Of a stretch of 64,000 nucleotides of DNA, positions 3,501-51,031 are shown in pieces. Source of the DNA: Rhizophagus irregularis. Lineage: Eukaryota. The stretch is from the NCBI RefSeq assembly GCF_026210795.1, contig NC_089433.1, forward strand, positions 1,922,001-1,986,000, given 5' to 3'. The position numbers were made by a program, and so were the translations under genes. Positions within the stretch are counted from its first letter, which is position 1, and every line of letters begins with the position of its first letter. The notes beneath the pieces were generated by a model. The model was not told the origin of the DNA and searched no databases. It saw nothing but the letters and a program-made list of their open reading frames with translations.

Positions 3501-4130
3501 TATAATTTAAATTTGGTAGTTTCATATTATCCATATATTTGCGGCCTTGTTCGATAGATCTTGGAAGAGGTGATTTATCTAAATTTGCATGTTTATTAAA
3601 GAATTTAATTATAGCATTTCCTGTTGCATTGTTAAGTTTATGTTTCGTAACTAATGCCATTAAATCACCATATGCTTCACTTGGGTAATTAACATTAATT
3701 TCTGGTTTGGATTTTTCTTCATTCAATTCTGAATCAGAATCTTCCAAGATATTTTCAAAGACATTTTCATTTTCATCGTGGTCTATTTCTTCTATATTTT
3801 GATCAATTTCACCAACCTCTGAAATTGACATCATACTTTGAAAACTCTGATTATTTATTTCCGAGTCTGTACTTTTATTATCAGAAAGATCTTCGCATGA
3901 ATCTTCACGGACCATCTATAAAATTAATTATGTTAAAAAAGAAATTCAAAAAATTTTATAATTTCCTATTTTCTTTACCTCAATATCATGATTATTAGTT
4001 TTATGTTCAAATTCTTCTAATTCTTCACTATCGCTACTATCGTTATTAGGCGGAGTACAAAAATTCTTATGTTGAGTGTATGCAGACCTTGTCTGAAGTA
4101 CCTTGGACAAAAAGGGCATTTATATGACAT
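549..4130 (-). pseudogene. Plavaka-family transposase, multi-exon, disrupted by a MITE and an N-terminal frameshift
   Basis: ORF-track exons 3343-3915, 2108-2587, 1592-1981, 1267-1518 and 844-1089. Motifs include LILYSDAT, IISDWPEAATYCL, PCHFC, PDRMHHLDLGLF and LPKLHSW..HIIDSIRSFGAVNGYTTETYESLHK. ATG at 4130 (MSYKCPFC); the stop follows KYIF at 549-551. Homologous to 46519-51031. Confidence 0.85.
2556..3092. mobile_element. Fold-back MITE (near-perfect 537-bp palindrome), CAC termini, 3-bp TSD TTA
   Basis: Runs CACAGGTCGAAAAGTGAAAAATCAGG...CCTGATTTTTCACTTTTCGACCTGTG, with TTA at 2553-2555 and 3093-3095. Removing it restores transposase WRRNKKDAK. Confidence 0.92.
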
Positions 4131-8124: not shown

Positions 8125-10000
8125 AATATTTACGATCACGTATTATTACGGAATATTTTGACCGTAATACTTCGGAACATTTACGATATCGTATTATTAT
8201 GGAATATTTCGACCGTAATGCTTCAGAACATTTTTGATCACGTATTATTACGGAATATTTTGATCATAATGCTTCGGAACATTTTCAATCACGTATTATT
8301 ACGGAATATTTCGATCATAATGCTTCAAAACATTTTCGATCACGTATTATTACGGAATATTTCGATCGTAATATTTCGAAACATTTACGATCACGTATTA
8401 TTACGGAATATTTCGATCGTAATGCTTTGGAACAATTGCGATATCATAATTCTACGGAATATTTCGATCGTAATATTTCGAAACATTTACGATCACGAAT
8501 ATTTTGATCGTAATGCTTCAGAATATTTACAATATCGTAATTCTACGGAATATTTCGATCGTAATGCTTCAGAACAATTGCGATATCATATTATTACGGA
8601 ATATTTCGATCATAATGCTTCAGAACATTTACGATATCATAATTCTACAGAATATTTTGATCGTAATACTTCGGAATATTTACGATATCGTAATTCTACG
8701 GAATATTTCGATCGTAATGTTTCGAAACATTTACGATCACGTATTATTACGGAATATTTTGACCATAATGTTTCAAAACATTTGCGATCACGTATTATTA
8801 CGGAATATTTTGACTGTAATATTTCGAAACATTTGCGATCACGTATTATTACGGAATATTTTGACCGTAATGCTTCGAAACATTTACGATCACGTATTAT
8901 TACGGAATATTTCGATCGTAATGTTTCGGAACATTTACGATCACGTATTATTTTGGAATATTTTGATCGTAATACTTTGGAACATTTACGATCACGTATT
9001 ATTACGGAATATTTCAATCATAATGCTTCGGAACAATTGCGATATCATAATTCTACGGAATATTTTGACCGTAATGTTTCGAAACATTTACGATCACGTA
9101 TTATTATGGAATATTTTGACCGTAATGTTTCAAAACATTTGCGATCACGTATTATTACGGAATATTTTGACCGTAATGCTTCGAAACATTTACGATCACG
9201 TATTATTACGGAATATTTTGACCGTAATGCTTCAAAACATTTACGATCACGTATTATTATGGAATATTTCGACCGTAATGCTTCAGAACATTTTCGATCA
9301 CGTATTATTACAGAATATTTTGACCGTAATGTTTCGAAATATTTGCGATCACGTATTATTACAGAATATTTCGATCGTAATATTTCGGAACATTTACGAT
9401 CACGTATTATTTCAGAATATTTCGATCATAATGCTTCGGAATATTTACGATCACGTATTATTACGGAATATTTTGACCGTAATGTTTTGAAACATTTGCG
9501 ATCACGTATTATTACGGAATATTTCGATCGTAATGTTTCGGAACATTTACGATCATGTATTATTTTGGAATATTTCGATCATAATGCTTCGGAACATTTA
9601 CGATATCATATTATTACAGAATATTTTGACCGTAATGCTTTAAAACATTTACGATCCCGTATTATTTCGGAATATTTTGATCGTAATGCTTCGGAACATT
9701 TACGATCACGTATTATTACGGAATATTTCGATCGTAATGCTTCGGAACAATTGCGATATCATAATTCTACAGAATATTTTGACCGTAATGTTTCGAAACA
9801 TTTACGATCACGTATTATTACGGAATATTTCGATCGTAATGTTTCGGAACATTTACGATTATGTATTATTTCGGAATATTTCAATCGTAATGTTTCGGAA
9901 CATTTACGATATCATATTATTACAGAATATTTTGACCGTAATGCTTCGAAACATTTACGATCCCGTATTATTTTGGAATATTTCGATTGTAAAATTACGT
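8125..10000. repeat. Subterminal tandem array of Plavaka copy 1, 51-bp unit, ~36 copies
   Basis: Unit CGTATTATTACGGAATATTTCGATCGTAATGTTTCGGAACATTTACGATCA gives a 17-aa period in the spurious ORF. It lies just inside the terminus at 10108. Confidence 0.92.
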
Positions 10001-21679: not shown

Positions 21680-21973
21680 AAAAAAGAAAGAACGGTTATT
21701 AGTAACTATTTGTAATAAAAAAAATAAAAAAAAATTGATAAAGATTCACACTTACGAATCTTTATCTTTGGATTTTCGTTTCTTGGAAACCCACCCGAAC
21801 CTAAAAAATAAAGAAAAGAACGGTTATTAGTAACCGTTAATAATATTAAAAAACAAAAAAAAAATTGATAAAGATTTATATTTACGAATCTTTATCTTTA
21901 GGTTTTTGTTCTTCAGAAGCCCACCCGAACCTAAAAAATAAAGAAAAGAATGGTTATTAGTAATCGTTAATAA
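21680..21973 (-). repeat. ~130-bp tandem units resembling exon/intron modules on the minus strand
   Basis: CCACCCGAACCTAAAAAATAAAGAAAAGAA occurs at 21791 and 21921. The minus strand reads polyT-TAG / short exon / GTAAGT or GTAAAT. Confidence 0.65.
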
Positions 21974-21975
21974 TA

Positions 21976-22271
21976 CAGTCAACTCATTCTATAGTCACTC
22001 CCGTTATAGTCACATTCTACTATATAGTCACACCAGTTAAATGTTCAAAACACTTTATTATTAAAATCTATCCTATATAGTCACAATTTATCTATAGTCA
22101 CTATCACACCTATCCTCAAAAATCTTATATTAAAAAGAACCATTTATAATTACAGTTATATAAAGAATATATTAAATAACTTGGCATCTAATAATCGTAC
22201 AAAGATGTACCATAGCTTGTTAGAATCGTCTCACTGAAACGAATTGAATGGTGGTAGTTTTATCCTTTTAC
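21976..22271 (+). mobile_element. Left end of a putative Tc1/mariner-pogo-like non-autonomous element; hosts the LINE-B/SINE target site
   Basis: Starts TA|CAGTCAACTC with repeated ATAGTCAC motifs, then the dyad GAATCGTCTCACTGAAACGAATTGAATGG and the target TTTTATCCTTTTAC (22258-22271). No right end found. Confidence 0.5.
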
Positions 22272-24569
22272 TTTACTATGTTTACGGCCAGACCACCCAT
22301 TGCCTCTTTTTGAGACTAATCTCGGGTCTGTGTCCTATCATCTTCAATGGGCAACCATTATATCGAGTACTTAATTCCTCAGGTAACAGCACCACTATAG
22401 AAGACATCTCCCATCGGGCCACTTTAGGCTGATCTGAAGCTAGGTACACGCCGCCTACTCATCCTATACCCATTGCATGATACTGATACTCAATTTATTT
22501 TACGACCTTTAGAGAGCATCTACTTTCATGGAGGACTTTCGACAGGTAACATCAACCATCTAGTACCCTTTCATACTACCATTTTAGGTACTAAGTCTCA
22601 CTCAAAGGCCACTACAGCCCCGATTACCTAGCACCGATAGTACAGTTGTTTACCCCAAGTGGTATACTTTGTAGTAACCTAACCATGACAGGAAGTAGCA
22701 GGCATTTGTCCAGGATCACCCCTTATAGTGGGTATCAACCACCAGGGATCACTAACCAAAATCTAAAGAGTAGGAAATCAAACCCCATAACCATGCTACC
22801 TGTTCTGTGCACTGGTCAAAATCAATACTATCAGGTACATATCGGGTACCTGATATGTGTATAATATATGTGATATATGTGTATGATATTTAACAATACT
22901 ACACATATCAGGTACCCGATATGTGTAGTAGAAATGTAGAAAATCGGTGACATATACTGTAAACATCACATATACATCTTACACATATCGGGTAGTCAAA
23001 TATCGGTGACATATCTTGTAAACATCATGTATATATCTTATACATATCGGGTAGTCAAATATCGGTGACATATCTTGTAAATATCACGTATATATCTTAT
23101 ACATATCGGGTAGTCAAATATCAGTGATATATATTATAGATATCATATACTTAACACACATATATCGGGTAGTTAGCTATAAATTTCATATTAAAACTAA
23201 TAGATATATATCTTTTTTTTATTTTAATTCAGATAAAATGAAATTCAACTTTATTAAAATTTAAACAATAATACAAGTCTTACTCTATCTACTACATACG
23301 TAAAATCAAATAAAGTTGAACATTAAAAATAAATAATTATACTATGTAATATGTAAAGTTCTACTGAAAGTAGCAATGATAATAAAATTATCTGTTTAAC
23401 ATTTAAAAAAAATATTAATGAAAATATTAGTAAGTATATTAATTAATAAGAGAAATAAAAATAGAAATGTTAATAAAAACGTTAGTGGTAAAAATATAGA
23501 AAATGTTAGTAAAAATGTTAGTAGAAAGAAAGAAAAGTTAGTAAAATAGAAAATATTAATACGAGAATGTTAATAAAAACATGTTAGTAGTATTTAATAT
23601 TAATAGAAAATGTTAATAAGTGGTAAAAAACATTAGTGAGAGAAAAGAAAAAAAGTATTAGAACGTCAATAGAAAATGTATATATATAAAAGAAAAAAAC
23701 AAGCATAATGAAAATATACCTTTATGTTTATTTCTAATATAAAAATAAATAAAAAAATATAATAATATTATTATTTCATAATAACTAAGTAAAGAGTTTG
23801 TTTTAAATAAAAAGTAAAAAGTTTAAGAGAAAGGTTTTTACGAAAGGAAAAAAAAAAATAAACAAAGTGCGAAATATAAATACCGAAATCATGTGATCAA
23901 TCGCTTGATTACAACAACAAATTCTGATTGGGCCATAATTTTAACCCCGGGTTATTATAATTTATAATAGAATTACACTGCAAGTTAAACTCTTTATTGC
24001 TTTAAATTACCAATTAGTCACATATCGGGTACCTATCGGTAACCTATCATGCATATACCAGTCAACAAGTTAAATCACTGATTTTTCGTAATATCACAAT
24101 AATAAATATTAATTTAGAATCTCCTTCATCCACTCAACTTACAGTTTGTATTATTATCCAAGAATCCATGCACTGGTTGAATGATGGCATATCAGGTCAT
24201 AAGATATCATGGCATATTGGTTAAATATCAGAAACCTGATATAGCTTGATATGTAATATTAAAAATCATATACATATCAGTAACCCAATATGACAATGAT
24301 TTGTTACCATAAGAGATATCGGTATTCTAATAGGTTGTTGAAATCTATATGAAAATAATCTGATTTATAAGTTACTCTTAAGTAGCTTTAATTGATTGAT
24401 CGGCAAAGAGAAACTTTAGTTTTGGAACGGTTTAATCCATCTGAAGTATATTGTTTCATTTAATAACGGAAATACTTATTTATCATAAATATAAATATTT
24501 TTTTTTTTCCTTTTTTAGGGTAAATATTTTTATTTTTATTATTCATTTATTTGATTTTTTAACTTACAG

Positions 24570-27500
24570 TTCAGTTTTCTTGCAGGTTTCGTTCTCATTG
24601 GAAATAGATTTTGGTAAGTTTATTTTACATTTTTTCCCCTATATTTAATCCCTTTAATTTTATATTTCTTAACAAACTTTATTAATTGTTCATTATTTTC
24701 TTTCTATTTTAGGTGGATTTTCGGTCTTCTTTAGGACTTCGGAACTCGGAAGTTAACTTCCTTAACTTCAGTTGATATTAGACAAAACTTTTTGTAGATC
24801 GGTATCCTGGAATGAAACAGTAAGTTTCAGAGTATTTCATTTTACTTCAAAACTTTTTAAAATTTATCTTATCTTTATTAGTATTTTTTTTGTAGGTATC
24901 GATAGAGTGAGTTTCTTGGATCGTTTTTTTAAATTTGCTTTGAAGAAACTAATTATTTCTTCTTTTGTCAAGTTTGTAGGGTTCGTCTTCAATTATCAGG
25001 TCAGTTCTTTGGTAAGTTTTGAATTGAAACTAAAAGGAATTTTTTTTTTTTAACGAGCATTGCTAACGTTTCGTTAATATATTTTTTTTAGGTTTTGGGT
25101 TCAACTGGACTCCTTCAGTGAGTTTCTATTCGAACTTTTAGAAAAATCAAATTTCTTTTTAGCTAACATTTCATTGTTATTTTTTTTTAGGTTTCAGGTT
25201 CAACTGGATGACTGGATTCCCCTCCGTTCTTCAGTGTATTTCGTTCCAAACTAAAAAAAATTTTTTTTTAACGAAATTTCGCTAATGGTGGTAAATCCGT
25301 AATGATCATCACATTAATCTGATTTGTAATTGCCGATATCGATAATCTAATTTTAATTCTTCTTCAGTTTTATTTTTTTTTTCATTTAACTGAAAAAATT
25401 TTAGTAAATAATTGGTGAAGTTTTTTTATTTCTATTTTATTTTTATTCCTTTTATTATATTTTCTTTTTTATCTTTAGGGATATCTCTCAGACTTGGAGC
25501 TCAGCCCTTTATTTCAATTTGAGAACATTATTAACGTTCCCTTTCTTTTTTTTCTTTAGGGACAGTGAGACGCGGACTTCGGCCTCTTGGATACCGGGCT
25601 TTGGAATGGTAATTAGAATGGGAGAGGATTCTTTTTTTTTGATTTGAGAACATTACTAACGATCCCTTACTTTTTTCTTTAGGGATAGCGAGTCGTGGAA
25701 TTTGGTCTTGAATGCTGGACTTCGGAATGGTAACTAGAATAGGAGAGCAGGAAGGGGATTTTTTTGATTTGGGAACGTTACTAATATTCCGTTTCTTTTT
25801 TTCTTTTGTAGATTCCGGAACCCGTTGGACACCATTTCGAAAGGACCCCGAATAATACTAATATAACTCACAAATGATCGGCATGCATTTACTATTAACT
25901 CTACGCAACTTTTTTTTTATAGTAACGCTACGCAAATCCAAATCTTAGTTCAAAAAAATTTTTGTTACTAATATAATTCATTTCACATTTTTTCTATTAA
26001 AATATTAATAAAATCATGCAAACCTCACCATTTTATATTAAAATAGTGTAGTTCGCACTTTTTTCTATTAAAATATTAATAAAATGGTGCGAAAATCACC
26101 ATTTATTTGTTAAAATGGTGCGTTTCGCACTTTTTCTATTAAAATATTAATAATATCATGCGAAACTCACCATTTATTTGTTAAAATAGTGCGTTTCGCA
26201 CTTTTTTATAATAAAATATTAATAAAATGGTGTGAAACTCTCCATTTATTTGTCAAAATGGTGCGTTTCGCACTTTTTTATATTAAAATATTAATAAAAT
26301 GGTGCGAAACTCTCCATTTATTTGTCAAAATGGTGCGTTTCGCACTTTTTTATATTAAAATATTAATAAAATGGTGCGAAACTCCATTTTTTTGTTAAAA
26401 TGGTGCGTTTCGCACTTTTTTATATTAAAATATTAATAAAATGTGCGAAACTCCCGATTTTTTTGTTAAAATGGTGTGTTTCGCACTTTTCTATTAAATT
26501 ATTAATAAAATGGTGCATTTCGCACTTTTTCTATTAAAATATTAATAAAATGGTGCGAAACTCTCCATTTATTTGTCAAAATGGTGCGTTTCGCACTTTT
26601 TTATATTAAAATATTAATAAAATGGTGCGAAACTCCATTTTTTTTGTTAAAATGGTGCGTTTCGCACTTTTTTCTATGAAAATATTAATAAAATGGTGCG
26701 AAATTCACCATTTTTTGTTAAAGTAGTGCATTTCGCACTTTTTTTTTATTAAAAAATATTAAAATAATGCGAAATGCATTACTTTTTGTTACTATATACA
26801 ATTAATTACCAAAATCCGTAATATTGCAAATTTCATAAATATATTACGGACCCATCCTTAATGGTTTTGCGCAACTTAATTTTTATCAATATTATACAAT
26901 TGATCAACATATATTTATAAACTCTACGCAAACGTGATATGTGAGTTATCCCAAAATTGACCGATCTACGCAAACTCAATTTATGGGTTTAAAAAGTAAT
27001 TTCATATAAACTCTACGCAAACCCGTTTGTGAGTTATATCAGTATTATTCGGGGTCCTATTTCGAACCAGTAAGTAAAAAAAAAAAATACTTTAAAAAGA
27101 AGGCGTATAGATATATACTAACCTTCTATTTTCTTTTTTTTTTGTAGGTTCCGGACGCCATTTCGAACCGGTAAGTTAAAAATCGTTCTAATAGAAGGCG
27201 TATAGATATATACTAACCTTTTATTTTCTTTTTTTTGTAGATTCTGGACCCTATTCGTTCTTATTTTTTGTAGGTTCAGAATGCCGAAGATACACATTTC
27301 GAAGGTAACTTCAGTTTATTTTATTTATTTTTTTGTTATATTCAAGCGAAACGTTACTAATGCTTCGATTTTTTTTTTAGGGTTTCGGCTCTCTGGAACT
27401 CTCCTGGGCGGAATTTCGAAGGTATTTCTTTGAAATTAATTTATTTCTTTGTTTTATTTAAATGAAACGTTAACTTAAACGTTTCAATTTTCTCTTTTTA

Positions 27501-28870
27501 TAGGTCCATGGCTTCCCGAGCGGCATTTCGAAGGTAAAACTTCAAAAACTTTTATTTTTATTTTTATTCAATGAACATTAATTAACGTTCGTTCTATTTT
27601 TTGTAGGTCCAGAACACCGAAGGTATAGTGACGGACTCCACTTCGAAGGCAAAACCATCGAAGTTTTTTAATTTTATTTAATGAAACGTTGGCTAACGTT
27701 TCATTTGTGTTTTTTTTATAGGTTTTGTAGGTCCACGGCTTTCCGGACGCGAATTTTGAAGGTAAAACTTTGAAATTAAAATTTTTTTTTATTTTAATTT
27801 GATGAACGTTAACTAATGTTCGTTTTGATTTTTTGTAGGTCAAGACATTGCCGGGTTCTATTTTGAAGGTGAAAGTTCGAAATGATTTTTTTTATTTTTT
27901 AACGAACATTATACTAATGTTCATTTTTCTTTTATTTTTGTAGGTCAGGACGCTGCCAGACTCCATTTTAAAGGTATTTTCTTTGAAAGTTTTTTTTTAT
28001 TAATTTATTTAACGAATGTTAGCTAACGTTCGTTCTTATTTTTTGTAGGTCCAGAATACCGAAGGTGCGATTCTGGATCCATTTTGAAGGTAACTTCAAT
28101 TTTTTTTTTTTTTTCAGCTAAACGTTCCTAATGTTTCAGTTTTTCTTTTTTAGGTATTTGGCTCTCCGAAATTCTCCTGGATGGAATTTTGAAGTTACTT
28201 CTTTGAAATCATTTTACTTTTTATTTTATTTTGTTATATTTTAGCAAAACGTTACTAACTTTTCGTGTCTTTTTTTTTAGGATCAGGAAGTTGAAGCACT
28301 CCCATTTCGAAGGTGAAACTTTTATTTATTTTTTATGTTTTATTAATGAAATGTTTTTATTAATGAAAGGTACTAACATTTTATTTTATTCTTTTTGTGA
28401 GAACCCAGCCGTCACTACTGCCATTTCGAAGGTAAAACTTCGAAGTCTGTTGTTTTTTTTTATATTTATTTAAACGAAATGTTGACTAACATCTCGACGT
28501 TTTGTTTCCTCTTTTTGTAGGTTTTTGACTCTCTGGACGCAGAATTTCGAAGGTAATACTTCGAAATTCTTTTTTTTTACTTTCTTCTAACGAACGTTAT
28601 ACTAACATTTATTTATTTTATTTTTTAGGTTCCAGGTTCCCTTTCAAACATTTCGAAGATGACAATTCGAAATGTCATTTGTTTTATTTTGTTTTTAACG
28701 AACGTTTGCTAAAGTTCGTTTTTCTTTTCTATATGGAAACCCGGGACCTAAAAAGTAAAAGTTCGAAGGTAAAGCTTCAAGATTGAGTTTTTCTTTTTTT
28801 CTTTATTTCTCTATAACGAAACTTTATTTCTTTTGTAGGTCCTGGACACCGTTTCAAAAGAATTGAATAG
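24570..28870 (+). other. Array of micro-exon/intron modules (putative spliced transcript 1 of the CACTG element)
   Basis: Repeated pattern: CTAAC branch, polyT, TAG | ~10-50 nt GC-richer exon | GT. About 14 consecutive exons at 27273-28768 end in TT(C/T)GAAG or close variants. Confidence 0.7.
25842..27058. mobile_element. AGGACCCCG-family element (1217 bp) with internal 69-bp repeats, 8-bp TSD ATTTCGAA
   Basis: TIR AGGACCCCGAATAATACT.ATATAACTCACAAA. ATTTCGAA at 25834-25841 and 27059-27066. Confidence 0.92.
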
Positions 28871-30590
28871 TTGTTTGCTGGAATCGAACCAACTGGAACA
28901 ATGTTCCAAACCATTAACAACATAATGTAGATAGATAGATAGAATAGGATAAATGAATGTAATTTATGTATAATAATGAAATAAAAAATATACGTTTAAA
29001 TAAATAAATAAATAAATAAATAATGTATATAAAATAAATAAATAATAAGAATAATAAGAAATCAGGTTTCGATGTAGCAAATATGCAACTAATATTATAG
29101 ACAGTTCGGTAAGGATTAAGATTGCTAAAATTCTTCCGATATTCATATTACACTTACCCGATGCTGCTTGACCCAAAAGTCACATGACTTATACCTGATC
29201 TGCGCCGAGAACCGGTCACAAATCAGGTGGACTGATCAGCTCCCATTCAGGTTAAAATCGAAAACAAATAATAGGGGCTATCGGGTATATGAAATTTACC
29301 CGGTAGCCCTTCATTTAACTAGTGAAAGGTAATGAAGTATGTGGTCATTGTGGTGTGAATGGTGTTAGGAATTCCACTAATGCCATTTCTTTATCTTTTT
29401 TAGGTTTTTAAGCAGTTTTTAAACAGCTCTTAGACAAACGGCATGTAATGGAGTGTATATATATATATAGTTGAGTGTGGTATTGCTAATGGTGTTATAA
29501 AAAATAATAACTAGTAACGCCACTATTTTTTATTTTTAGGATTCTTGATAGTTCCTGGATAATCCTTCGCGGTAGGTCTTTTGGTTGGGTATTAATGGCG
29601 TTATTAAACTATATAATAATGCCTTTTTTATTTTTTTTTAGGTTTTAAGTCAGACGATTATTTGCAATAAGTTTCTTTGGGTGATTATATGGAGCGATAT
29701 TAACACCTTTTACTTCTTTCTTTTTTGATTTTTAGACGATTCGTTGATAACTGTTTATGGTAAGTCTTTCGGGTGGGTGTTAATACAGTAGTACTATTAA
29801 ACTATAATAACACCTTTTTTTTTGTTTTTAGGTTTTAAAATAGTTTCTGGATGTCTCCTTGCAGTATGTTTCTTTGAGTAGTTATGTGGTGATATTAATG
29901 GCATATTAAATCCATTTGTTTTTTTTTTCGTTAGGTTTCTGAATGGTTTTTGTGGATAAAAAACACAGATTTCTGTACTGGTAATAAGTTTCTTTTGGTT
30001 GGTATGTGAATGTTAATGACGTTAGGATGCAGTACTAACATAATTTCTTCTATTTTTTAGGTTCTTGGACAATGCTTTGAACGATTTTTGGATAAAACAT
30101 TATGGTAGGTTCTTTTGTTAATGCAATAATGGTATTATTAAACAAAGCTAACACTTTTTTTTTATTTTTTTATGTTTCTTGGATTAAAACGCGTAATGTA
30201 GATCAGACATGATCGTAATGTCAAGATCAACTAAGACGTGACATCTGATATTAGAACTTAGAAGTTGCTTGTTGGAATCGAACCAACTGGAACAATGTTC
30301 CAAACTATTAAAACATAATGTAAATAGATAGAATAGGATAAATTAATGAACAATTTAAATATAATAATGAAATAAATATATTATATGTTAAATAAATAAA
30401 TAAATAAATAAATAATAGTACATATAAATGAATAAATAATAAAAAGAAATCAGGTTTCGACATAGCAAATATACACCTGATATCATAAATAGTTCAGTAA
30501 GGATTAAGAGAAATATCGGATTGCTGAAATTCTCCCGATATTCATATAACACTTACCGTTATGTTCTGACCTGAAAGTCATATGACAAAT
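28870..30590 (+). repeat. Diverged direct repeat (~320 bp; ~28870-29195 and ~30263-30590) closing each micro-exon array; a second exon array lies between the copies (~29400-30180)
   Basis: Both copies contain TGGAATCGAACCAACTGGAACAATGTTCCAAAC, AATAAA-rich tracts and GAAATCAGGTTTCGA...GTAAGGATTAAGA. Confidence 0.8.
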
Positions 30591-31285
30591 CATTTGACCT
30601 GTGATTAGTACCTGATATATATTAGAAATATATCGGTGACATATTGGGCGATATATATCTGATTATATAGGTGCCCGAAATATACCAGTGTATATCGGTG
30701 ACATATTGGGTACCCGATGTTGTACCCGATATATGTAAATGCCCGATATATATCTGATTAGTCACCGATATATAGGTGCCTGATATATACCCGATAGCAT
30801 AGATTTTGACCAGTGGTGTACGAACACTTTGGTTGGTCTAAGACCTAACAGAAGGTCAAACTACCACTAAGACATTGCACTCTCAGCCCTCAGCTTTACC
30901 ATTTAGGACGACCATCTAGCTATTACTGACTCCAAGTGGTATCGTAGAGTGACCACCTGGACAGGAAGTCTCCCCCAAGGTATAGTAGTGACCTCAAGAA
31001 CAGGACTGCGCACATACCAATGGCCTCATAGGGAACGTTAGAAAGACACCATGACCCTTAGTTGAAATGTGCGGTCTAACCGTACACACTAATTCACCAT
31101 GATGCAGTCCAACTACACTAATCCCTGTACTTTCATGCTATTGGTTGTAGCGTCCGCAGTAAAATTCTTTTTATTTCCGTGGTCATGGGAATCGAACCTG
31201 CGACCTCACCATACTCAGGCTTAATGAGGGACTCAGTTACTATCTACCGAAATAGGGTGACCAACCTTTAGTTTTATCCTTTTAC

Positions 31286-33721
31286 TTTGCTATATTTACG
31301 GCCAGACCACCTATTGCCTCTTTTTGAGGCTAATCTCGGGTCTGTGTCCTATTATCTTCAATGGGCAACCATTATACCGAGTACTTAATTCCTCAGGTAA
31401 CAGCACCACTATAGAAGACATCCCACATCGGGCCATTTTAGGCTGATCTGAAGCTAGGTACACACCGCCTACTCATCCTATACCCATTGCATGATACTGA
31501 TACTCAATTTATTTTACGATCTTTAGAGAGCATCTACTTTCATGGAGGACTTTTGACAGGTAACATCAACCATCTAGTACTCTTCCATACCACTATTTTA
31601 GGTACTAAGTCTCACTCAAAGGCCACTACAGCTCGCGATTACCTAGTACTGATAGTACAGTTGTTTACCCCAAGTGGTATACTTTGTAGTGACCACTCAG
31701 ACAGGAAGTAGCAGGCATCTGTCCAGGATCACCCCTTATGGTGGGTATCAACCACCAGGGATCACCAACCAGGACCCAAAGAGTAGGGAATCGAACCCCA
31801 TAACCATGCTACCTGTTCTGTGCACGAACACCTTGGTTGGTCTATGACCTAACAGAAGGTCAAACTACCACTAAGACATTGCACCCTCAGCTTTACCATC
31901 TAGGACGACCATCTAGCTATTACTGACCCCAAGTGGTATCGTGGAGTGACCACAGGACCCCGAATAATACTAATATAACTCACAAATGATCGGCATGCAT
32001 TTACTATTAACTCTACACAACTTTTTTTTCATAGTAACGCTACGCAAATCCAAATCTTAGTTCAAAAAAATTTTTGTTACTAATATAATTCATTTCACAT
32101 TTTTTCTATTAAAATATTAATAAAATCATGCAAACCTCACCATTTTATATTAAAATAGTGTGTTTCACACTTTTTTCTATTAAAATATTAATAAAATGGT
32201 GCGAAAATCACCATTTATTTGTTAAAATGGTGCGTTTTGCACTTTTTCTATTAAAATATTAATAATATCATGCGAAACTCACCATTTATTTGTTAAAATA
32301 GTGCGTTTCGCACTTTTTTATATTAAAATATTAATAAAATTGTGCGAAACTCTCCATTTATTTGTCAAAATGGTGCGTTTCGCACTTTTTTATATTAAAA
32401 TATTAATAAAATGGTGCGAAACTCTCCATTTATTTGTCAAAATGGTGCGTTTCGCACTTTTTTATATTAAAATATTAATAAAATGGTGCGAAACTCTCCA
32501 TTTATTTGTTAAAATGGTGCGTTTCGCACTTTTTTATATTAAAATATTAATAAAATGGTGCGAAACTCTCCATTTATTTGTCAAAATGGTGCGTTTCGCA
32601 CTTTTTTATATTAAAATATTAATAAAATGGTGCGAAACTCTCCATTTTTTTGTTAAAATGGTGCGTTTCGCACTTTTTTATATTAAAATATTAATAAAAT
32701 GTGCGAAACTCCCAATTTTTTTGTTAAAATGGTGCGTTTCGCACTTTTTTATATTAAAATATTAATAAAATTTGCGAAACTCCCAATTTTTTTGTTAAAA
32801 TGGTGCGTTTCGCACTTTTTTATATTAAAATATTAATAAAATGGTGCGAAACTCTCCATTTATTTGTCAAAATGGTGCGTTTCGCACTTTTTTATATTAA
32901 AATATTAATAAAATGGTGCGAAACTCTCCATTTTTTTGTTAAAATGGTGCGTTTCGCACTTTTTCTATTAAAATATTAATAAAATGGTACGTTTCGCACT
33001 TTTTTATATTAAAATGTTAATAAAATGGTGCGAAATTCACCATTTTTTGTTAAAGTAGTGCATTTCGCACTTTTTTTTTATTAAAAAATATTAAAATAAT
33101 GCGAAATGCATTACTTTTTGTTACTATATACAATTAATTACCAAAATCCGTAATATTGCAAATTTCATAAATATATTACGGACCCATCCTTAATGGTTTT
33201 GTGCAACTTAATTTTATCAATATTATACAGTACAATTGATCAACATATAATGCAATATATTTAAAAACTCTACGCAAACGTGATATGTGAGTTATCCCAA
33301 AATTGACCTATCTACGCAAACTCAATTTATGGGTTTAAAAAGTAATTTCATATAAACTCTACGCAAACCCGTTTGTGAGTTATATTAGTATTATTCGGGG
33401 TCCTGTGACCACCTGGACAGGAAGTCCCCCCTAAGGTATAGTAGTGACCTCAAGGACAGGACTGCGCACATGCCAATGGCCTCATAGGGAATGTTAGAAG
33501 GACACCATGACCCTTAGTTGAAATGTGCGGCCTAACCGTACACACTAATTCACCATGATGCAGTCCAACTACACTAATCCCTGTACCTTCACGCTATTGG
33601 TTGTAGCGTCCACAGTAAAATTCTTTTTATTTCCGTGGTCATGGGAATCGAACCTGCGACCTCACCATACTCAGGCTTAATGAGGGTCTCAGTGACTAAC
33701 CACTAAGATAGGATGACCAAC
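31286..33721 (-). mobile_element. tRNA-derived SINE copy 2 (interrupted by an AGGACCCCG element)
   Basis: Same ~970-bp sequence. Two B boxes on the minus strand (31787-31797 and ~33644-33654). Target copies at 31272-31285 and 33725-33738. Confidence 0.87.
31954..33404. mobile_element. AGGACCCCG-family element (1451 bp) with expanded 69-bp repeats, 8-bp TSD GTGACCAC
   Basis: Near-identical to 25842-27058 apart from repeat number. GTGACCAC at 31946-31953 and 33405-33412. Confidence 0.92.
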
Positions 33722-33738
33722 TTGTTTTATCCTTTTAC

Positions 33739-34945
33739 TTTGCTATGTTAATGGCCAAACCACCCATTGCCTCTTTTTGAGACTAATCTCGGGTTTGTGT
33801 CCTATCATCTTCAATGGGCAACCATTATACCGAGTACTTAATTCCTCAGGTAACAGCAATACTATAGAAGACATCCCCCATCGGGCCACTTTAGGCTGAT
33901 CTGAAGCTAGGTACACGCCGCCTACTCATCCTATACCCATTGCATGATACTGATACTCAATTTATTTTACGACCTTTAAAGAGCATCTACTTTCATGGAG
34001 GACTTTCGACAGGTAACATCAACCATCTAGTACCCTTCCATACCACCATTTTAGGTACTAAGTCTCACTCAAAGGCCACCACTGGTAAAAAATGATTTAT
34101 CCTACACATATCTTACACATATTGGGTACTCAAAATGTAGAAAATCATACACAAATAATACACATATCATACACATATCGGATACTAATATATATATCAT
34201 ACATATATCAGGTACCTGATAGGTATACTATATATATAAGTACCCGATATGTGTATGATATGTATATTATTTGTGTATGATTTTCTACATTTTGAGTACC
34301 CGATATATGTAAGATATGTGTAGGATATGTGTAGGATAGACCATTTTTTTACCAGTGCACTACAGCCCGCGATTCACCACAGGTACCGATAGTACAGTTG
34401 TTTATCCCAAGTGGTATACTTTGTAGTGACCACTCGGACAGGAAGTAGCAGGCATCTGTCCAGGATCACATTTTATGGTGGGTATCAACCAATAACCATG
34501 CTACCTGTTCTGTGCACGAACACCTTGGTTGGTCTATGACCTAACAGAAAGTCTAACTACCACTAAGACATTACACCCTCAGCTTTACCATCTAGGACGA
34601 CCATCTAGCCATTATTGACCCCAAGTGGTATCGTGGAGTGACCACCCGGACAGGAAGTCTCCCCCAAGGTATAGTAGTGACCTCAAGGACAGGACTGTAC
34701 ACATGCCAATGGCCTCATAGGGAACGTTAGAAGGACACCATGACGCCCGTTGAAATGTGCAGCCTAACTGTACACACTAATTCACCATAATGCAGTCTAA
34801 CTACACTAATCCCTCCCCGTACCTTCACGCTATTGGTTGTAGCGTCCACAGTAAAATTCTTTTTATTTCCGTGTCATGGGAATCGAACCTGCGACCTCAC
34901 CATACTCAGGCTTAATTTATGTGATAGCGACTAACCACTGAGATC
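33739..34945 (-). mobile_element. tRNA-derived SINE copy 3 (MITE insertion, internal deletion, head slightly truncated)
   Basis: Aligns with the other copies. Target at 33725-33738 and 34947-34960. Confidence 0.85.
34080..34357. mobile_element. CACTG MITE (278 bp), 3-bp TSD CAC
   Basis: Runs CACTGGTAAAAAATG...CATTTTTTTACCAGTG, with CAC on both sides. Largely palindromic. Confidence 0.9.
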
Positions 34946-34960
34946 ATTTTATCCTTTTAC

Positions 34961-36163
34961 TTTGCTTATGTTTACGGCCAGACCACCTATTGCCTCTTTT
35001 GGACTAATCTCGGGTTTATGTCTCTATCATCTTCAATGGGCAACCATTATACCGAGTACTTAATTCCTCAGGTAACAGCACCACTATAGAAGACATCCCC
35101 CATCGGGTCCACTTTAGTCGATCTGAAGCCAGGTACACGCCGCCTACTCATCCTATACCCATTGCATGATACTGATACTCAATTTATTTTACAACCTTTA
35201 AAGAGCATCTACTTTCATGGAGGACTTTCGACAGGTAACATCAACCATCTAAGTACCCTTCCATACCACCATTTTAGGTACTAAGTCTCACTCAAAGGCC
35301 ACCACTGGTAAAAAATGATTTATCCTACACATATCTTACACATATTGGTACTCAAAATGTAGAAAATCATACACAAATAATACACATATCATACACATAT
35401 CGGATACTAATATATATATCATACATATATCAGGTACCTGATAGGTATACTATATATATAAGTACTCCCGATATGTGTGTGATACGTATATTATTTGTGT
35501 ATGATTTTCTACATTTTGAGTATCCGATATATGTAAGATATGTGTAGGATATGTGTAGGATAGACCATTTTTTTACCAGTGCACTACAGCCCGCGATTAC
35601 CTAGTACCGATAGTACAGTTGTTTACCCCAAGTGGTATACTTTGTAGTGACCACTCGGACGGAAGTAGCAGGCATCTGTCCAGGATCACATTTTATGGTG
35701 GGTATCAACCAATAACCATGCTACCTGTTCTGTGCACGAACACCTTGGTTGGTCTATGACCTAACAGAAAGTCTAACTACCACTAAGACATTACACCCTC
35801 AGCTTTACCATCTAGGACGACCATCTAGCCATTATTGACCCCAAGTGGTATCGTGGAGTGACCACCCGGACAGGAAGTCTCCCCCAAGGTATAGTAGTGA
35901 CCTCAAGGACAGGACTGTACACATGCCAATGGCCTCATAGGGAACGTTAGAAGGACACCATGACCCTTAGTTGAAATGTGCAGCCTAACTGTACACACTA
36001 ATTCACCATAATGCAGTCTAACTACACTAATCCCTGTACCTTCACGCTATTGGTTGTAGCGTCCACAGTAAAATTCTTTTTATTTCCGTGGTCATGGGAA
36101 TCGAACCTGCGACCTCACCATACTCAGGCTTAATGAGGGTATTAGTGACTAACCACTGAGATC
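34961..36163 (-). mobile_element. tRNA-derived SINE copy 4 (near duplicate of copy 3)
   Basis: Same MITE at the same site, same internal deletion and same head truncation as copy 3. Target at 36165-36178. Confidence 0.85.
35303..35581. mobile_element. CACTG MITE, duplicate of 34080-34357, TSD CAC
   Basis: Same termini and same insertion point within the SINE. Confidence 0.9.
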
Positions 36164-36178
36164 ATTTTATCCTTTTAC

Positions 36179-37152
36179 TTTCGCTATGTTTACGGCCAGA
36201 CCACCTATTGCCTCTTTTTGGACTAATCTCGGTCTGCGTCCTATCATCTTCAATAGGCAACTATTATACCGAGTACTTAATTCCTCAGGTAACAGCACCA
36301 CTATAGAAGACATCCCCCATCGGGCTACTTTAGGCTGATCTGAAGCTAGGTATACGCCGCCTACTCATCCTATACCCATTGCATAATACTGATACTCAAT
36401 TTATTTTACGACCTTTAGAGAGCATCTACTTTCATGGAGGACTTTTGACAGGTAACATCAACCATCTAGTACCCTTCCATACCACCATTTTAGGTACTAA
36501 GTCTCACTCAAAGGCCACTACAGCCCACGATTACCTAGCACCGATAGTACAGTTGTTTACCCCAAGTTGTATACTTTGTAGCGACCACTGACAGGAAGTG
36601 GCAGGCATCTGTCCAGGATCACCCCCTTATGGTGGGTATCAACCACCAGGGATCACCAACCAGGACCCAAAGAGTAGGGAATTGAACCCCATAACTATGC
36701 TACCTGTTCTGTACACGAACACCTTGGTTGGTCTAAGACCTAACAGAAGGTCTAACTACCACTAAGACATTGCACCCTCAGCTTTACCATCTAGGATGAC
36801 CATCTAGCCATTACTGACTCCAAGTGGTATCGTAGAGTAACCACCCGGACAGGAAGTCCCCCCAAGGTATAGTAGTGACCTCAAGAACAGGACTGCGCAC
36901 ATGCCAATGGCCCCATAGGGAACGTTAGAAGGATCTGTGACTCGGATTGAAATGTGCAGCCTAACTGTACACACTAATTCACCATGATGCAGTCCAACTA
37001 CACTAATCCCTGTACCTTCACGCTATTGGTTGTAGCGTCTGCAGTAAAATTCTTTTTATTTCCGTGGTCATGGGAATCGAACCTGCGACCTCACCATACT
37101 CAGGCTTAATGAGGGTCTCAGTGACTAACCACCGAGATAGGGTGACCAACCC
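36179..37152 (-). mobile_element. tRNA-derived SINE copy 5, uninterrupted (~974 bp)
   Basis: Minus-strand head GGTCACCCTATCTCGGTGGTTAG...GGTTCGATTCCCATGACCA (B box 37073-37083). Flanked by the target at 36165-36178 and 37156-37169. Confidence 0.88.
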
Positions 37153-37420
37153 TTATTTTATCCTTTTACTGTGCAAACAGTCTTTTGACTTTATCTTTTA
37201 TTCATATTTTAACATCGAAAATTGACGAACAATATTACAAAAATAAGAAAATAAACTAATAAAAAATAAAAAGAGTAGCTTCACGACTCATATAAGTAAA
37301 GAAATCTAAACTAAAATAAAATTAAAGCAAAGAAAAACTAAACTATTACAGAATCGCATACCCCAACTTTACCCGAAGGCCAGTGTGAGTCAACTATCCA
37401 ACGTCCAAAAATCCAGTCCG

Positions 37421-44164: not shown

Positions 44165-44700
44165 GTAAGTTTACGATTTTGTAAGTTTATGAAAGTTTAT
44201 GGCATAATATTTCGAAAAATTTCAAAATATTACGTAAGTTTACAATTTCGTAAGATTTATGTGATATTACGGTTAAAATATTACGTAAGTTTACAATATC
44301 GTAAGATTTACGCAATATTATGGTCAAAATATTCTGCAAATTTACGAAACTGTAAACCTGCGTAATATTACGGTTGAAATATTTCGAAAATTTACGAAAC
44401 TGTAAACCTGCGTAATATTACGGTTGAAATATTTTGAAAATTTACGAAACTGTAAACCTGCGTAATATTACGGTTAAAATATTTCGAAAATTTACGAGAC
44501 TGTAAACCTGCGTAATATTACGGTTGAAATATTTCGAAAATTTACGAGACTGTAAACCTGCGTAATATTACGGTTAAAATATTTCGAAAATTTACGAAAC
44601 TGTAAACCTGCGTAATATTACGGTTGAAATATTTCGAAAATTTACGAGACTGTAAACCTGCGTAATATTCCGTTTCGAAAATTTACGAGATTGTAAACTG
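44165..44700. repeat. Left subterminal array of Plavaka copy 2 (50-bp unit)
   Basis: TTTACGAAACTGTAAACCTGCGTAATATTACGGTTGAAATATTTCGAAAA recurs every 50 bp from 44341 to ~44670, with degenerate copies upstream. Confidence 0.9.
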
Positions 44701-46220: not shown

Positions 46221-46420
46221 CAATTACTAAATATCATCCCCTTGTGATAAATAAAAAATTACGCAACACAAATTCAACACAAACTCAACACAAATTTAAC
46301 AAATTTAACGAAATTTGGCCAAAATTAACAAATTTTTTACTAGAATTATCAACACAAATTGAACACAAATTTCAGTCACGATTTATTTATGTCACGCCCG
46401 TGTTGTTAATAATTAAATAA
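46221..46420 (+). repeat. Internal inverted repeat, left arm (partner 54052-54238)
   Basis: CAATTACTAAATATCATCCCCTTGTGATAAAT...GTCACGCCCGTGTTGTTAA is the reverse complement of 54052-54238 with few differences. Confidence 0.9.
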
Positions 46421-46518
46421 ATAAATCTGCATTTTATTTATGATATGGAAAACGTGACCATAAATTCTTTTAAGGATATAATTTTATTAAAATAAATCAA
46501 AACTCCTATATCAAGTGA

Positions 46519-49500
46519 CTAAAAAATATATTTATTTACGAAATATTCATTTTGTTTATCAAATCGGGGTACTATGTGAACGACACCATGTATAGACTCT
46601 ATAGCTACAAAGTTATATAATTCTATTAATTTTAAGTGAGGACATCCATATAAATATGGGTTCCTTTTAGATTTAAAATCGTACCATTGAATTAATGCAA
46701 GATTTAGCGGTGGGTCTGTTAATACTTCTGCTAACAATAAGGCCTATAAATAATAAATATTTATTAATACTTTTATAATAAATTATTACATAAATTGGAA
46801 AAATACCTGTCCATAACAAAGTCCTTTGTCTGATATATAATCATTTGATTCTTCAGAATCCATTGAAATAGCTATGTCGCTAAACCATACTTTATTATGA
46901 TACCTGTTTGTGGCACACATTATGGCACCATTTTCCAGTGTTACCGATCTGTATATGTTTATTCGGATTTCACCAATAATTGTGAAACCATCAAGTAAAT
47001 CTAGATATGAATCCAGACAACTTATAAATCTAGCAAAACCAGTCTGCATTTTATTGTCTACGGAATCTTTTTTTTCATTAAAAAATGTATTTGCATTTTG
47101 TAAAGAGAATTCAAAGAGTCTTGCAGAAAATTTACAAGTGTGAGGTGTTTTTGCCGGATTCACTGAATGTTGAGACATTCTAATAGATATTGCTTGACGT
47201 TTTATCTATTAATTTAATTTCCATCTTAAGTTATATAATAAATATATACAATAAATAAAATTTTCAAATACTTACAGTTCGTAAAATCTGAGGTTTGACA
47301 TCTTTTTTATTGCTAATTCGGTAGGGTATTTTAACGAAATATTTGTGAAGACTTTCGTAAGTTTCTGTAGTATAGCCATTTATTACGCCATAAGATCGTA
47401 TTGAGTCAATAATATGATAAACCCATGAATGCAATTTAGGTAACTTCAAATTGGAAGGAGAAACAAATTTAAAAGCCTTGACAAACATCCGAGCCCATCT
47501 ATGTATTGCATTCTAAAACTTAAATGTTAATTTAATTTATTTAATTTAAATTTTCAATTTTACTAAAATTTTAATACATACATTAAATTTCTCCAAGTCA
47601 CTTTCACTAAATTCTTCATATCTACTTAAAATATACATTTCATTCCAATATTCGTACAATTTCGTAAGATCATCATTATTTACAAAATTATCTACTTCAT
47701 TGTTATTTTCATCATATAAATTATCAATAACAAATATCATGACTTTCATCAAACTTCGATATTCATTAGCAGTTAATCTTGCAATTGACTGCAGTCCATT
47801 GGAAAAAATTTTAATGGCGGGAAAACGTGGGATTGCTGCTAGACGGTGATCTACTTCTTCAACTAATTTATTACCATTAACATGTTGCAATTTTAAGATA
47901 TCGCACGTGAAGATAATTTGATAACGAAATAAACCTAAATCTAAATGATGCATTCTGTCAGGAACAGTAGCCAAGTAGATATTTATATTCCTTGATAATA
48001 TAAATATTTATAATTAATAGATATATATGTTATTATAATTATTTCTACTTTTGCATACTTACGGTAAATCCCAAAAAAAATTATGTACAGATTCTATGCA
48101 AACAGATCTTTGTGTATCATTTTCAAAATGTTTACGCATTTCATCATGAGTTCTTAGTATTACATCGTTAACCGATAAGTCTATATTTGCAAGATTTTCC
48201 CTTTTAACTAAACAGGAGTGACATGGAAGGTTTGAATTGGAGGATTTATAAACTAAACAAAAACTTGCGGCTTTCGGCCAATCTGCAATAATAGTTGAAA
48301 CTCTAGGATAAAACCAGGTATTTTCATTATTTATAAAAAGGTCTATACCATCTTTTAATAAAATAATAGGTTCTAGTAAATGACGTAAAGATTTATGAAA
48401 GGTATCACGAACCAGATCTTTATTTGCAGCTTCTAAAATTGGTAAATATCCCAAAAGTTGCTTTGCATCCTGTTTATTACGACGCCATATTGGGATATTA
48501 CCTAATGTAATATATATTGGATGCAATTGACTTTTTCCTAATGTATCTGTAGTTGTTGCATCTGAATATAAAATAATTGATAATAATTTGGAACCAGTAG
48601 GTAAGGATTCTTGTGTAGTTTTCCACCATTTTCCAGTGTTTTGTTCACTGTAAATACTTTCTCTATTATACTATAAAATAATATAAATAAATTAAAATAA
48701 ATATTATTTAAATTATTGAATTAACTAATATTTACTATTTACCTCATAGTTTTCGTAAGATAGCGCAAAATTTTGTGTTATGTCAGGAACAGTTAAGATA
48801 TTTTTGATGCACTGTATTAAGTTTTGATAATAAAGAAAATAATCTTTATCTTTATGTTTTGTTATAAGAACTTTACTAAATTTTAAATTAGAAAACTTCA
48901 TATTATTCATAAATGCTCGTCAGGACCCCGAAAAATACATATAAAGGTCACATGTAAGTTTGCTTAACCATATTAGTAAAATTTCCAAAAGTCATAAAAT
49001 TTTATTTGCATAGATTTTGAGATTTTTTAAAAGGTTATATATATAGTTTGCGTAATAACAATCATTTTTATATATGTCATATATTTTAATTTGTGTAGTC
49101 AACGGTATTTTTTAATAAAATATATATATATATATAATTCCAGCAGTCTTCTACTAATTAGCAGCATAACGCCTTGGAATTCCAGCAATTTTCTACTAAT
49201 TAGCAGCATAACGCCTTGAAATTCCAGCAATTTTCTACTAATTAGCAGTATAACGCCTTGGAATTCCAGCGATTTTCTACTAATTAGTAGCATAACGCCT
49301 TGGAATTCCAGCGATTTTCTACTAATTAGCAGCATAATGCCTTGGAATTCCCTAATAAGCAGCATTACGCATAGTATAATATATAAATTTTTGAAAATAC
49401 ATAATTGACAGCTAATCTGATTGATAATAGATAATTTTTTTTTCAATTTTTTGACTTTTAACAGACCGTTTTATTGAAAGAAAAAAATAAAATAATTTTT

Positions 49501-51031
49501 TTTGGTCTGTAACAAACCGTTTTATTCAATAAAATTTTTTTTTTGGCCTTTACTGTTATATTTTTTTAACAACAGGCCATTTTATTAAAAAAAAAATATT
49601 TGATTTAGAATGTTATTAATATTCCTTTTTATTATTTTTCTTTAAAAGTAACTTCTTAAATCTAAAATTTATTATTTTAGATACCAATATCTTGGAAAAA
49701 TATGAGTTAAGAGAAAAGTATAGTCAATTTTTTTGGGAATATTACCATACTAATATTCCTTTTACTTTTTTCTTAGGAACTTGGAATTTAGACTGGAACT
49801 CCAATGCTCACTGTAAGTAAAGAATTTTTTAGCTTTATTTTATTTATTTTAGAAGTATTATTAACATTTCTATTGTTTTTTCTATTAGAAATAGTTTTTA
49901 GATTAAAACTAAACTGAAATTTTTAGTAAGTTGAGAATAGGGTGGAATTTTTTTTGTTTTATATGTGAAGTAGTATTAATATTTTTTTTCTTTAGAAATA
50001 GAATCTTCTTTTAGAAATGATTTTATAAATTATATTCTAAGTTTTTGTTATAATTTATAAAAAAATAATGAACAATCTTTTTGTTTTAGTGTTAATACTT
50101 GAATTATCAAATAATTAAATATAGTAGTATAAATAAATACGTCAGTACAAATTAATTTATGCAATTTGGCATTATGCTAGCAATTGAAAATCAATTATAC
50201 TGGAAGTATATTCTAAATACAACTAATTAAATTAAAAAAAAAGCCATGATTTCATTTTTTTAATATACAAATGTCATAAAAAAAATTTGCTTATTCTAAT
50301 ATAAATTATAAAGTCAGAAGTCAACTTTGCGTATTGATCTTAGTAAAAACATTTGCTTATTTTAAAGCAAAATTTTGCCGATCATCTCTGACTTTTATAT
50401 GTATTTTTCGGGGTCCTTGCTCGTCCCTGTTCGATATTTTTTGGTAATGGTGATTCTGTAAGATTTGAATGTTTATTAAAAAAACGTATTATTTCATTAC
50501 CACCTTTATTATTTATTTTATATTTCGTTACTAATAACATTAGATTTTTATGAGCATCATTAGGAAATTCTGTGCAAGTTTTGGTATTGAGATTTTTGGG
50601 TTCTTCAAAAATTTCAGGCTCTTCAGAAATTTCAAGCTCTTCAGATGAATCTAATATATTTTCAAAGTTACTATCTTCAAGGCTCATCTCTGATATTGCA
50701 CTTCCAATACTGTCAAATGACATATTTTGTACATCATTATCATCATCCACCTAAAATTATAAACCAAATGAGTTAGTATAATTTGAGCTTTTTTCTTAAG
50801 AGCTTTAAAAAGAATAATCTGGAATAACATAATTACCTCAACTTTATCATTTTCATATTCACTACTTAGATTACTTCTTGTATCCATTTCACTGCTATAT
50901 TTTTCACTATCATTATTATCATCATCTTCTTCTACTTCTAATTCTACATTTTTTAAGCATTTTTGGGCGTGTTGAATATATGCAAAGCGTTGACTGAATA
51001 TTCGCATACAAAGGGGGCATTTAAAACTCAT
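46519..51031 (-). pseudogene. Plavaka-family transposase, multi-exon, interrupted by an AGGACCCCG element
   Basis: MSFKCPLC..HAQKC N-terminal finger, IILYSDATT, HPIYITLGNIP.WRRNK, IIADWPK, ATVPDRMHHLDLGLF, LPKLHSW, GYTTETYESLHK and terminal VNKYIF. Confidence 0.88.
48922..50417. mobile_element. AGGACCCCG-family element (1496 bp), 8-bp TSD TGCTCGTC; internal 39-bp repeats and exon/intron-like modules
   Basis: Runs AGGACCCCGAAAAATACATATAAA...TTTATATGTATTTTTCGGGGTCCT. TSD at 48914-48921 and 50418-50425. 39-bp repeats at ~49138-49365. Confidence 0.92.

Follow-up and report, generated by a model that had tools for sequence, protein, structure and literature searches.

Within a 64,000-nucleotide (nt) stretch of the Rhizophagus irregularis genome (contig NC_089433.1, positions 1,922,001 to 1,986,000 of the forward strand; hereafter the window, whose own numbering is used throughout), an 8.0-kb DNA transposon that lacks a transposase carries two units of tandem micro-exons, each closed by a copy of the same repeat, in which a conserved 52-nt tRNA-like element is predicted on the opposite strand. 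This cassette is real and without any description that we found in print; its function is still a matter of hypothesis. Members of the family are really spliced, as established for the second array through RNA reads of a related copy, and the micro-exon units are likely non-coding. We tentatively favour, short of holding it probable, the reading that the transposon bears a spliced non-coding RNA cassette that acts in cis to keep the element transcribed and shielded from silencing, the anti-silencing purpose being hypothetical. The main rival, which we consider somewhat unlikely, is a neutral by-product: palindromic transposon repeats would expand in tandem and be perfected by DNA-level template switching, and the T-rich units would be spliced whenever transcribed, with no RNA-level selection except perhaps on an inherited tRNA-derived fragment.

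The element spans 22810-30815 (8,006 bp) and its termini read CACTG..CAGTG. The left terminal inverted repeat (22810-22856, plus strand) matches the right one (30770-30815, minus strand) at 85% over 47 nt, a 3-bp GTG target site duplication (TSD) flanks the whole (22807-22809 and 30816-30818), and the empty site, with a single GTG, is present in sister copies of the approximately 1.2-kb host repeat that served as target. Subterminal repeats, a hallmark of CACTA elements in the plant literature, comprise a palindrome and 59-bp tandem repeats at 22837-23173, resembling the ends of a small CACTG miniature inverted-repeat transposable element (MITE) at 34080-34357 (75% over 87 nt), and further copies of the motif near 30600-30770. 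The longest open reading frame (ORF) inside the element does not exceed 108 amino acids, and 20 of the longer ORFs, searched for an EnSpm transposase, gave no Pfam match. By its ends and its TSD, the stretch is a transposase-less, non-autonomous element of the EnSpm/CACTA (CMC) class, for which passages of PMC12730594 give 5'-CAC..GTG-3' ends and a 3-bp TSD as the fungal marks; CMC-EnSpm families are described as young and expressed in R. irregularis in the relevant part of PMC8647823. The first-pass annotation had likewise proposed a transposase-less CACTG element, at 24570-30590; the element begins 1.8 kb further left. A Plavaka identity was rejected, since the ends of Plavaka elements as given in PMC12730594, in the part concerned, are TGT..ACA or CATCA..TGATG; the Plavaka matches of the window, at 2111 and 48062, lie in elements other than this one.

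The interior consists of splice modules on the plus strand. A scan for polypyrimidine-YAG acceptors returned 34 on that strand of 24001-31000 versus one on the minus strand, and 30 on the plus strand of the remaining 57 kb of the window; CTAAY precedes 17 of the 34, versus four elsewhere. A strict module pattern matched four times, with 0.00 matches expected from 100 shuffles, and hand curation gave about 34 exons in two units, array exons measuring 23-42 nt and introns 64-89 nt. The more than 30 modules announced by the first-pass annotation are thus borne out in number, but not every module is intact: in array A the donor departs from GT in three of 14 cases (GC in one), and the acceptors at 28737 and 30165 are damaged.

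Unit 1 is preceded by candidate promoter motifs for RNA polymerase (Pol) II (TATAAA, TCATGTGA and GATTGG; 23875-23931, plus strand), picked from a motif list; similar sets, counted without a chance control, lie upstream of the arrays in loci L122, L130 and L133. It comprises some ten micro-exons (24586-25841, plus strand; upstream of the region to which RNA reads were aligned), among which one has no donor and the last is interrupted by a MITE, then array A and a last exon from 28839. Part of this 5' group (25507-25811) is 67-72% similar to the array in L131. The interrupting MITE (25842-27058, 1.2 kb, with internal 72-bp tandem repeats and an 8-bp TSD at 25834-25841 and 27059-27066) is hAT-like, judged by TSD length. 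Array A holds 15 predicted micro-exons (27148-28768, plus strand), and its 14 successive exons with TT(C/T)(G/A)AAG ends, at 27274-28768, are those first noticed in the earlier annotation. Unit 2 consists of array B, with seven micro-exons of 24-46 nt (29404-30104, plus strand), and a last exon from 30202. Both units close, as had been reported, with a repeat of about 320 bp (28869-29188 and 30263-30586) that is 80% identical between the copies and contains eight AATAAA in each of the stretches counted; the AATAAA-rich tail of unit 1 occupies 28925-29188, spacer included, with its duplicate at 30320-30586. The tandem modules support the growth by exon duplication proposed earlier. The array exons have no matches elsewhere in the window, and therefore give no sign of a spacer-acquisition system. 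A loose module pattern run on viral contigs found only isolated, scattered matches in 120 stretches, which we take as chance.

The splice signals had been claimed to be better conserved than the exons. In a set of 37 array-A-type exons, drawn from the window and from four relatives and picked by their splice signals (hence biased upwards), 33 have GT donors, 36 AG acceptors and 36 a branch-like motif; pair identity above shuffles is 0.48 at the exon end and 0.17-0.21 in the intron zones, versus 0.06 in exon interiors. The claim stands for this set, and signals so retained around exon interiors near shuffle level argue, within the same selection bias, against neutral turnover.

Evidence of splicing comes from three raw RNA-seq runs of the same species label (X21, X22 and X24) and one contig set, aligned to 27070-30815 at 88% likeness. 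Among the 15 joints examined out of 41, eight lie at predicted introns of array B, and five array-B joints have GT..AG ends and occur in all three runs. Read counts in X21, X22 and X24, respectively, are 7, 12 and 44 for joint 29469>29540; 11, 12 and 50 for 29570>29641; 24, 22 and 148 for 29758>29831; 3, 3 and 73 for 29979>30060; and 7, 6 and 89 for 30103>30201. A further joint omits exon 29642 (13, 12 and 49 reads), so that skipping of this exon is likely, though the skipped and included joints could stem from two paralogs. The precision of array-B splicing counts against a neutral by-product.

Two features had escaped the first-pass annotation: the hairpins around donor and branch site, and the antisense tRNA-like element. 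In the predicted folds of array A, the exon end pairs with the following intron start, leaving the GT in the loop, and the branch motif sits in a second hairpin; 27070-28860 contains 12 such hairpins, compared with 1.1 in shuffles. When relatives are included, two-sided changes number 22 against 6.0 expected in donor hairpins (n = 48) and 29 against 10.5 in branch hairpins (n = 38), with none of 5000 shuffles as high in either case. For these sets, four of 42 rows were dropped as mis-anchored or near-duplicate, and L129 was excluded from the donor set as near-identical to L121; the arms were placed by best pairing, and the modules are related rather than independent, which inflates the counts and thereby favours the neutral rival. 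Conversely, stems with the donor in the loop recur in arrays of other sequence (five of five donors in L124, two of two at 21755 and 21885 of the window, two of four in L131; p < 0.05), and this coincidence of loops and GT donors in three different arrays counts against neutral turnover. Within the 5' group of unit 1 just one of eight donors has such a stem. Mismatches in donor hairpins are more often G-U than A-C (20 versus 6, p 0.009; unique pairs 16 versus 6, p 0.05), the unanchored count being 9 versus 4, not significant. The two donors at 21755 and 21885 belong to a short third micro-exon array on the minus strand of the window (21683-21975), of unrelated sequence, with a 130-bp period and of the same kind as L124; it shows both donor-in-loop and branch hairpins, and no tRNA-like element adjoins it.

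The 52-nt tRNA-like element is the conserved core of the 320-bp repeat, and just two copies occur in the window: the first (28870-28921, minus strand) runs antisense within the last exon of unit 1, under a peak of RNA depth at 28820-28944, and the second, slightly decayed (30264-30314, minus strand), lies at the end of unit 2. The minus strand is predicted to fold into a stem of 6 bp that closes the structure, the linker AAUGGUU, a second 6-bp stem capped by a loop of 3 nt, and a T-arm of 5 bp whose loop reads UUCGAUU, without a D-stem; we take the T-arm to be of B-box type and the linker to be A-box-like, by consensus motifs. Fold z-scores run from -1.5 to -2.7 on the minus strand and from -1.0 to -1.9 on the plus strand. 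Across 16 copies, minus-strand pairing is kept in 265 of 265 cells; all four stem pairs that vary change to G-U on the minus strand, equivalent to A-C on the plus strand, and RNA reads add a fifth G-U variant (30274 G>A). A tRNA gene identity was rejected: ARAGORN called no gene, RF00005 was unmatched up to an E-value of 1, and a D-stem and a 7-nt anticodon loop are absent. Rfam gave no gathering-level match, only sub-threshold miRNA-type matches on palindromes.

A 24-mer common to the two 320-bp repeats matched 14 metagenome loci, all with the 52-nt element, and was not found in prokaryotic genome contigs. Upstream of the element lie intron arrays of four sequence types in nine of the 14 loci and intron-poor, purine-rich repeats in the other five (GAA/GGGA repeats in L123, L125, L127, L132 and L134); its other flank aligns only inside small groups of loci, and neither the ends of the 8.0-kb element nor array B was matched by any of the 14. 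A terminal element that is nearly invariant between mostly unalignable flanks is another point against neutral turnover. In X21, X22 and X24, read depth over unit 1 is highest at the element, and the reads there continue upstream into several different sequences; several loci therefore transcribe through it. In L128, the micro-exon array is present a second time, inverted, downstream of the element (790-1250), which would permit a long fold-back RNA. Among viral sequences, a 17-mer from the element matched 23 loci, at model E-values never below 0.077, and in two of the 23 those 17 nt form the T-arm region of a phage tRNA-Tyr. Twelve phage loci (L135, L136, L139-L141, L145, L147, L151, L153 and L155-L157) have in common a conserved sequence, not itself a tRNA, that carries a T-arm-like motif and lies close to a tRNA gene; it is unrelated to the cassette.

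The differing repeats behind one common head could also be read as a SINE-like retroelement (short interspersed nuclear element) on the minus strand, with the tRNA-like element as head and the array, read backwards, as a variable A-rich tail, whose introns would survive as antisense to the mobile RNA. The B-box-type T-arm and A-box-like linker would suit such a head, the window contains LINEs (long interspersed nuclear elements; RVT_1 match), and SINEs are reported from R. irregularis in passages of PMC11075540. We nevertheless find this origin very unlikely: about 270 nt upstream of the head are common to both window copies, and about 300 nt to L122 and L124, which retroposition would not copy; no TSD was seen around the cassette in the few loci and short contigs available, and the cassette lies inside a DNA transposon.

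Under the reading of a cis-acting, silencing-evading cassette, Pol II would transcribe each unit from an internal promoter, with polyadenylation in the AATAAA tail, and the modules would grow via tandem DNA duplication. The many short introns may load spliceosomes onto the nascent RNA, while the donor hairpins would weaken or tune splice-site use and so lead to skipping and retention. The terminal element, by its B-box-type T-arm and A-box-like linker, might bind TFIIIC and Pol III or become a small tRNA mimic, and could in this way give each unit a terminal boundary or roadblock. A wider version, which we regard as doubtful, is that arbuscular mycorrhizal (AM) fungi harbour a widespread modular non-coding RNA cassette carried by different DNA transposons, in which interchangeable arrays, either of micro-exons that present their splice sites in hairpin loops or of purine-rich repeats, and one conserved antisense tRNA mimic couple spliceosome loading to the Pol III/tRNA machinery and steer the silencing of the element.

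Several observations weigh against the cassette as a functional device. The RNA libraries are unstranded and come without a DNA run as control, and the reads show fixed departures from the window sequence (at 29411, for example, all 42 X21 reads have G in place of A) and have a different upstream exon; they therefore derive from another allele or paralog. The heavily spliced transcripts first proposed for both arrays are accordingly upheld for array B, through a related copy, whereas array A gave no GT-AG joint among the 15 of 41 joints, and reads there match intron stretches. This absence is not evidence of non-splicing, because reads spliced from diverged paralogs would fail to align to this region.

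Coding potential belongs to the same balance. Exon length leaves a remainder of 0, 1 and 2 after division by three in 9, 12 and 19, respectively, of 40 array-A-type exons with homologous boundaries, as the first-pass annotation had noticed in part; the same repeat is therefore read in changing frames. Array-B isoforms have stops in all frames and reach at most 30 codons from Met. On exon phase and array B, the earlier judgement of probably non-coding transcripts stands; for unit 1 it is borderline, as in silico splicing leaves 162 consecutive codons free of stops (p 0.034 relative to shuffling inside exons); omitting the split exon gives 151 (p 0.048), and an alternative acceptor 108 (p 0.27). 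Such a run, found at these p-values in two of three exon choices, and a GC content of the exons (0.51) above that of the introns would suit a decayed or variable peptide gene, similar to the micro-exon genes (MEGs) of Schistosoma, or a multi-exon second gene of the CACTA element. We rate this the least probable explanation of all, as 31 of the 40 exons are not multiples of three, the longest Met-started frame of unit 1 has 54-65 codons, the 20 ORFs searched are Pfam-negative, and in seven relatives, with automatic and incomplete exon calls, no open frame is significant (p 0.11-0.70). Protein searches with one read-through ORF, and with an exon-peptide alignment against proteins of 5-132 amino acids and against 1.84 billion representatives, found no match; they are weak tests, the profile being dominated by one read-through sequence.

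The hairpins also supply arguments for neutral turnover. The donor hairpins of the window copy alone show no excess of two-sided changes (3 versus 1.9) and look decayed, in a copy that is decaying and interrupted by a MITE; significant donor stems are found in none of seven donors of array B and none of three of L128. Mismatches in branch hairpins are strand-symmetric (14 G-U, 15 A-C) and array-A modules fold equally well on both strands, as DNA-level palindrome repair would give. In L122, a 1.1-kb run of the branch-site palindrome (600-1700) displays both loop orientations without exons or introns, which suggests DNA-level amplification and loop inversion. Taken over donor and branch hairpins, the mismatch types are compatible with maintenance at the RNA or the DNA level.

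As to the terminal element, 24 of its 52 nt are fixed by the search pattern, and no stem pair has a two-sided change. In L129, a TET/JBP dioxygenase gene (PF12851, E 4.5e-9; interrupted by a stop codon in frame) follows the element, between it and a micro-exon-like array of other sequence (981-2501 and 3200-3674). Stalled splicing in Cryptococcus can reportedly trigger RNA interference instead of preventing it. TET/JBP is a cargo proposed, in a passage of PMC12730594, to help fungal transposons evade methylation silencing; its presence favours the cis-acting reading, but it neighbours the element in one of the 14 loci.

Splicing on one strand and a tRNA-like fold on the other also invite a reading of the cassette as a small-RNA source. 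The first-pass annotation had suggested small-RNA precursors, silencing decoys or alternatively spliced short peptides, roles that are all hypothetical. A plus-strand spliced RNA overlapping a minus-strand Pol III transcript that begins close to the tRNA-like element, or poorly spliced hairpin introns that stall the spliceosome, would then feed RNA-dependent RNA polymerase, Dicer and AGO and yield small interfering RNAs against the family or in trans. Relative to the minus strand, read-molecule ends cluster 27 nt before element 1, at 28948 (six to nine molecules in each of three runs), and the minus strand never has a T run longer than five from 28921 to 27100, both of which would suit such a transcript; the cluster could equally mark where a plus-strand RNA terminates. 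With 7-12 bp, the stems are short for Dicer, which also counts against this source, and we find it improbable overall, even though 49% of R. irregularis small-RNA loci match transposable elements (TEs) and 41% unannotated DNA, as given in the part of PMC8647823 on these loci.

Compared with known systems, the transposon shares ends and a 3-bp TSD with the fungal non-autonomous EnSpm/CACTA elements treated in passages of PMC12730594, but its interior consists of two micro-exon arrays with antisense tRNA-like ends rather than a deleted transposase, a cargo undescribed in the parts of PMC12730594 and PMC8647823 concerned. The TE-derived long non-coding RNAs (lncRNAs) of Blumeria hordei are likewise fungal, transposon-borne and spliced, and they are non-coding and alternatively spliced, as is likely here; according to sections of PMC10648671, they average 2.3 exons, fewer than 1.9% have over five, and they are antisense to TE genes, whereas here 8-25 tandem micro-exons make up each unit, the splice sites are structured and an RNA-like element is conserved at the end. 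Strings of very short exons in TE-rich surroundings are likewise found in Schistosoma MEGs, together with exon skipping, which is likely here, yet their exons are symmetric, of at most 36 nt, and encode secreted proteins (PMC8293314, passages on these genes). Here nine of 40 exons are multiples of three and no protein was found; an MEG identity was rejected on these asymmetric exons and on Met-started frames of at most 65 codons in silico.

Non-coding host genes of small nucleolar RNAs (snoRNAs) or mirtrons have short, poorly conserved exons and better conserved introns. The present arrays resemble them in exon and intron conservation, but their introns repeat one sequence and have no end-to-end fold; a snoRNA host gene was rejected, with a C or D box in none of 14 introns and Rfam without a gathering-level match. 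Fungal introner-like elements and sister stwintrons also consist of short spliceosomal introns that resemble one another within families and bear inverted repeats; as presented in parts of PMC8469720, these are dispersed in coding genes and symmetric end to end, whereas here exon and intron recur together in tandem and one hairpin spans the exon-intron boundary. The predicted fold of the terminal element shares with mascRNA and menRNA, as portrayed in portions of PMC11693755, a size of about 52-58 nt, an acceptor-like stem, a T-arm, a GG at the D-loop position, a middle stem with a compact loop and a place at the 3' end of a long non-coding unit. mascRNA, however, shares its strand with the host lncRNA, from which RNase P/Z excises it (same source, same portions), whereas the fold here favours the minus strand and splicing the plus strand, with a 6-bp closing stem and no D-stem. 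The cassette was not described in the literature searched, which included passages on R. irregularis TEs and annotation (PMC8647823, PMC10234402 and PMC11075540); supplements and TE libraries may list the element as an unclassified repeat. PMC8216456 mentions neither Rhizophagus nor Glomero-.

The window around the element is transposon-rich, with LINE and Plavaka remnants. The host of the 8.0-kb element (22255-22809 and 30816-37174) is a GC-richer tandem repeat of about 1.2 kb with B-box-like GGAATCGAACC motifs, possibly tRNA-derived, which took several insertions: the 8.0-kb element, a 1.4-kb MITE and two 280-bp MITEs. The latter two (34080-34357 and 35303-35581) are palindromic, with CACTG ends, a CAC target duplication and subterminal motifs in common with the 8.0-kb element, and were likely mobilized by the same transposase. 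The MITE with an 8-bp TSD and internal 72-bp tandem repeats has two copies (25842-27058 and 31954-33404), with a further end motif at about 56460. Two decayed Plavaka elements (844-3915 and 46274-54197) match PF18759 (2111-2587 and 48062-48670, respectively), and both also have a divergent second gene, of a family with dozens of copies in Rhizophagus annotations; a protein fragment at 52842-53222 is 94-98% identical to R. irregularis and R. clarus proteins. Long tandem arrays of 51 bp and 50 bp (8128-9992 and 44264-44669) are partly mutually complementary and open in several frames.

About half of Rhizophagus genomes consists of repeats, two-thirds of which are unclassified, as stated in the pertinent passages of PMC11075540. 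The recognizable 52-nt seed and module grammar provide a handle to find, count and test one class of these unclassified repeats, and even a neutral cassette would flag a source of false multi-exon gene models. If functional, it would represent a transposon strategy that draws on nothing but RNA processing signals, and its structured splice sites, numbering in the hundreds, would form a natural library from which to learn how donor and branch hairpins tune micro-exon inclusion. Should the reading as a modular cassette prove true, the cassette would be an anti-silencing device of a new, RNA-only class and would account for a share of the orphan multi-exon 'genes' in the genomes of AM fungi.

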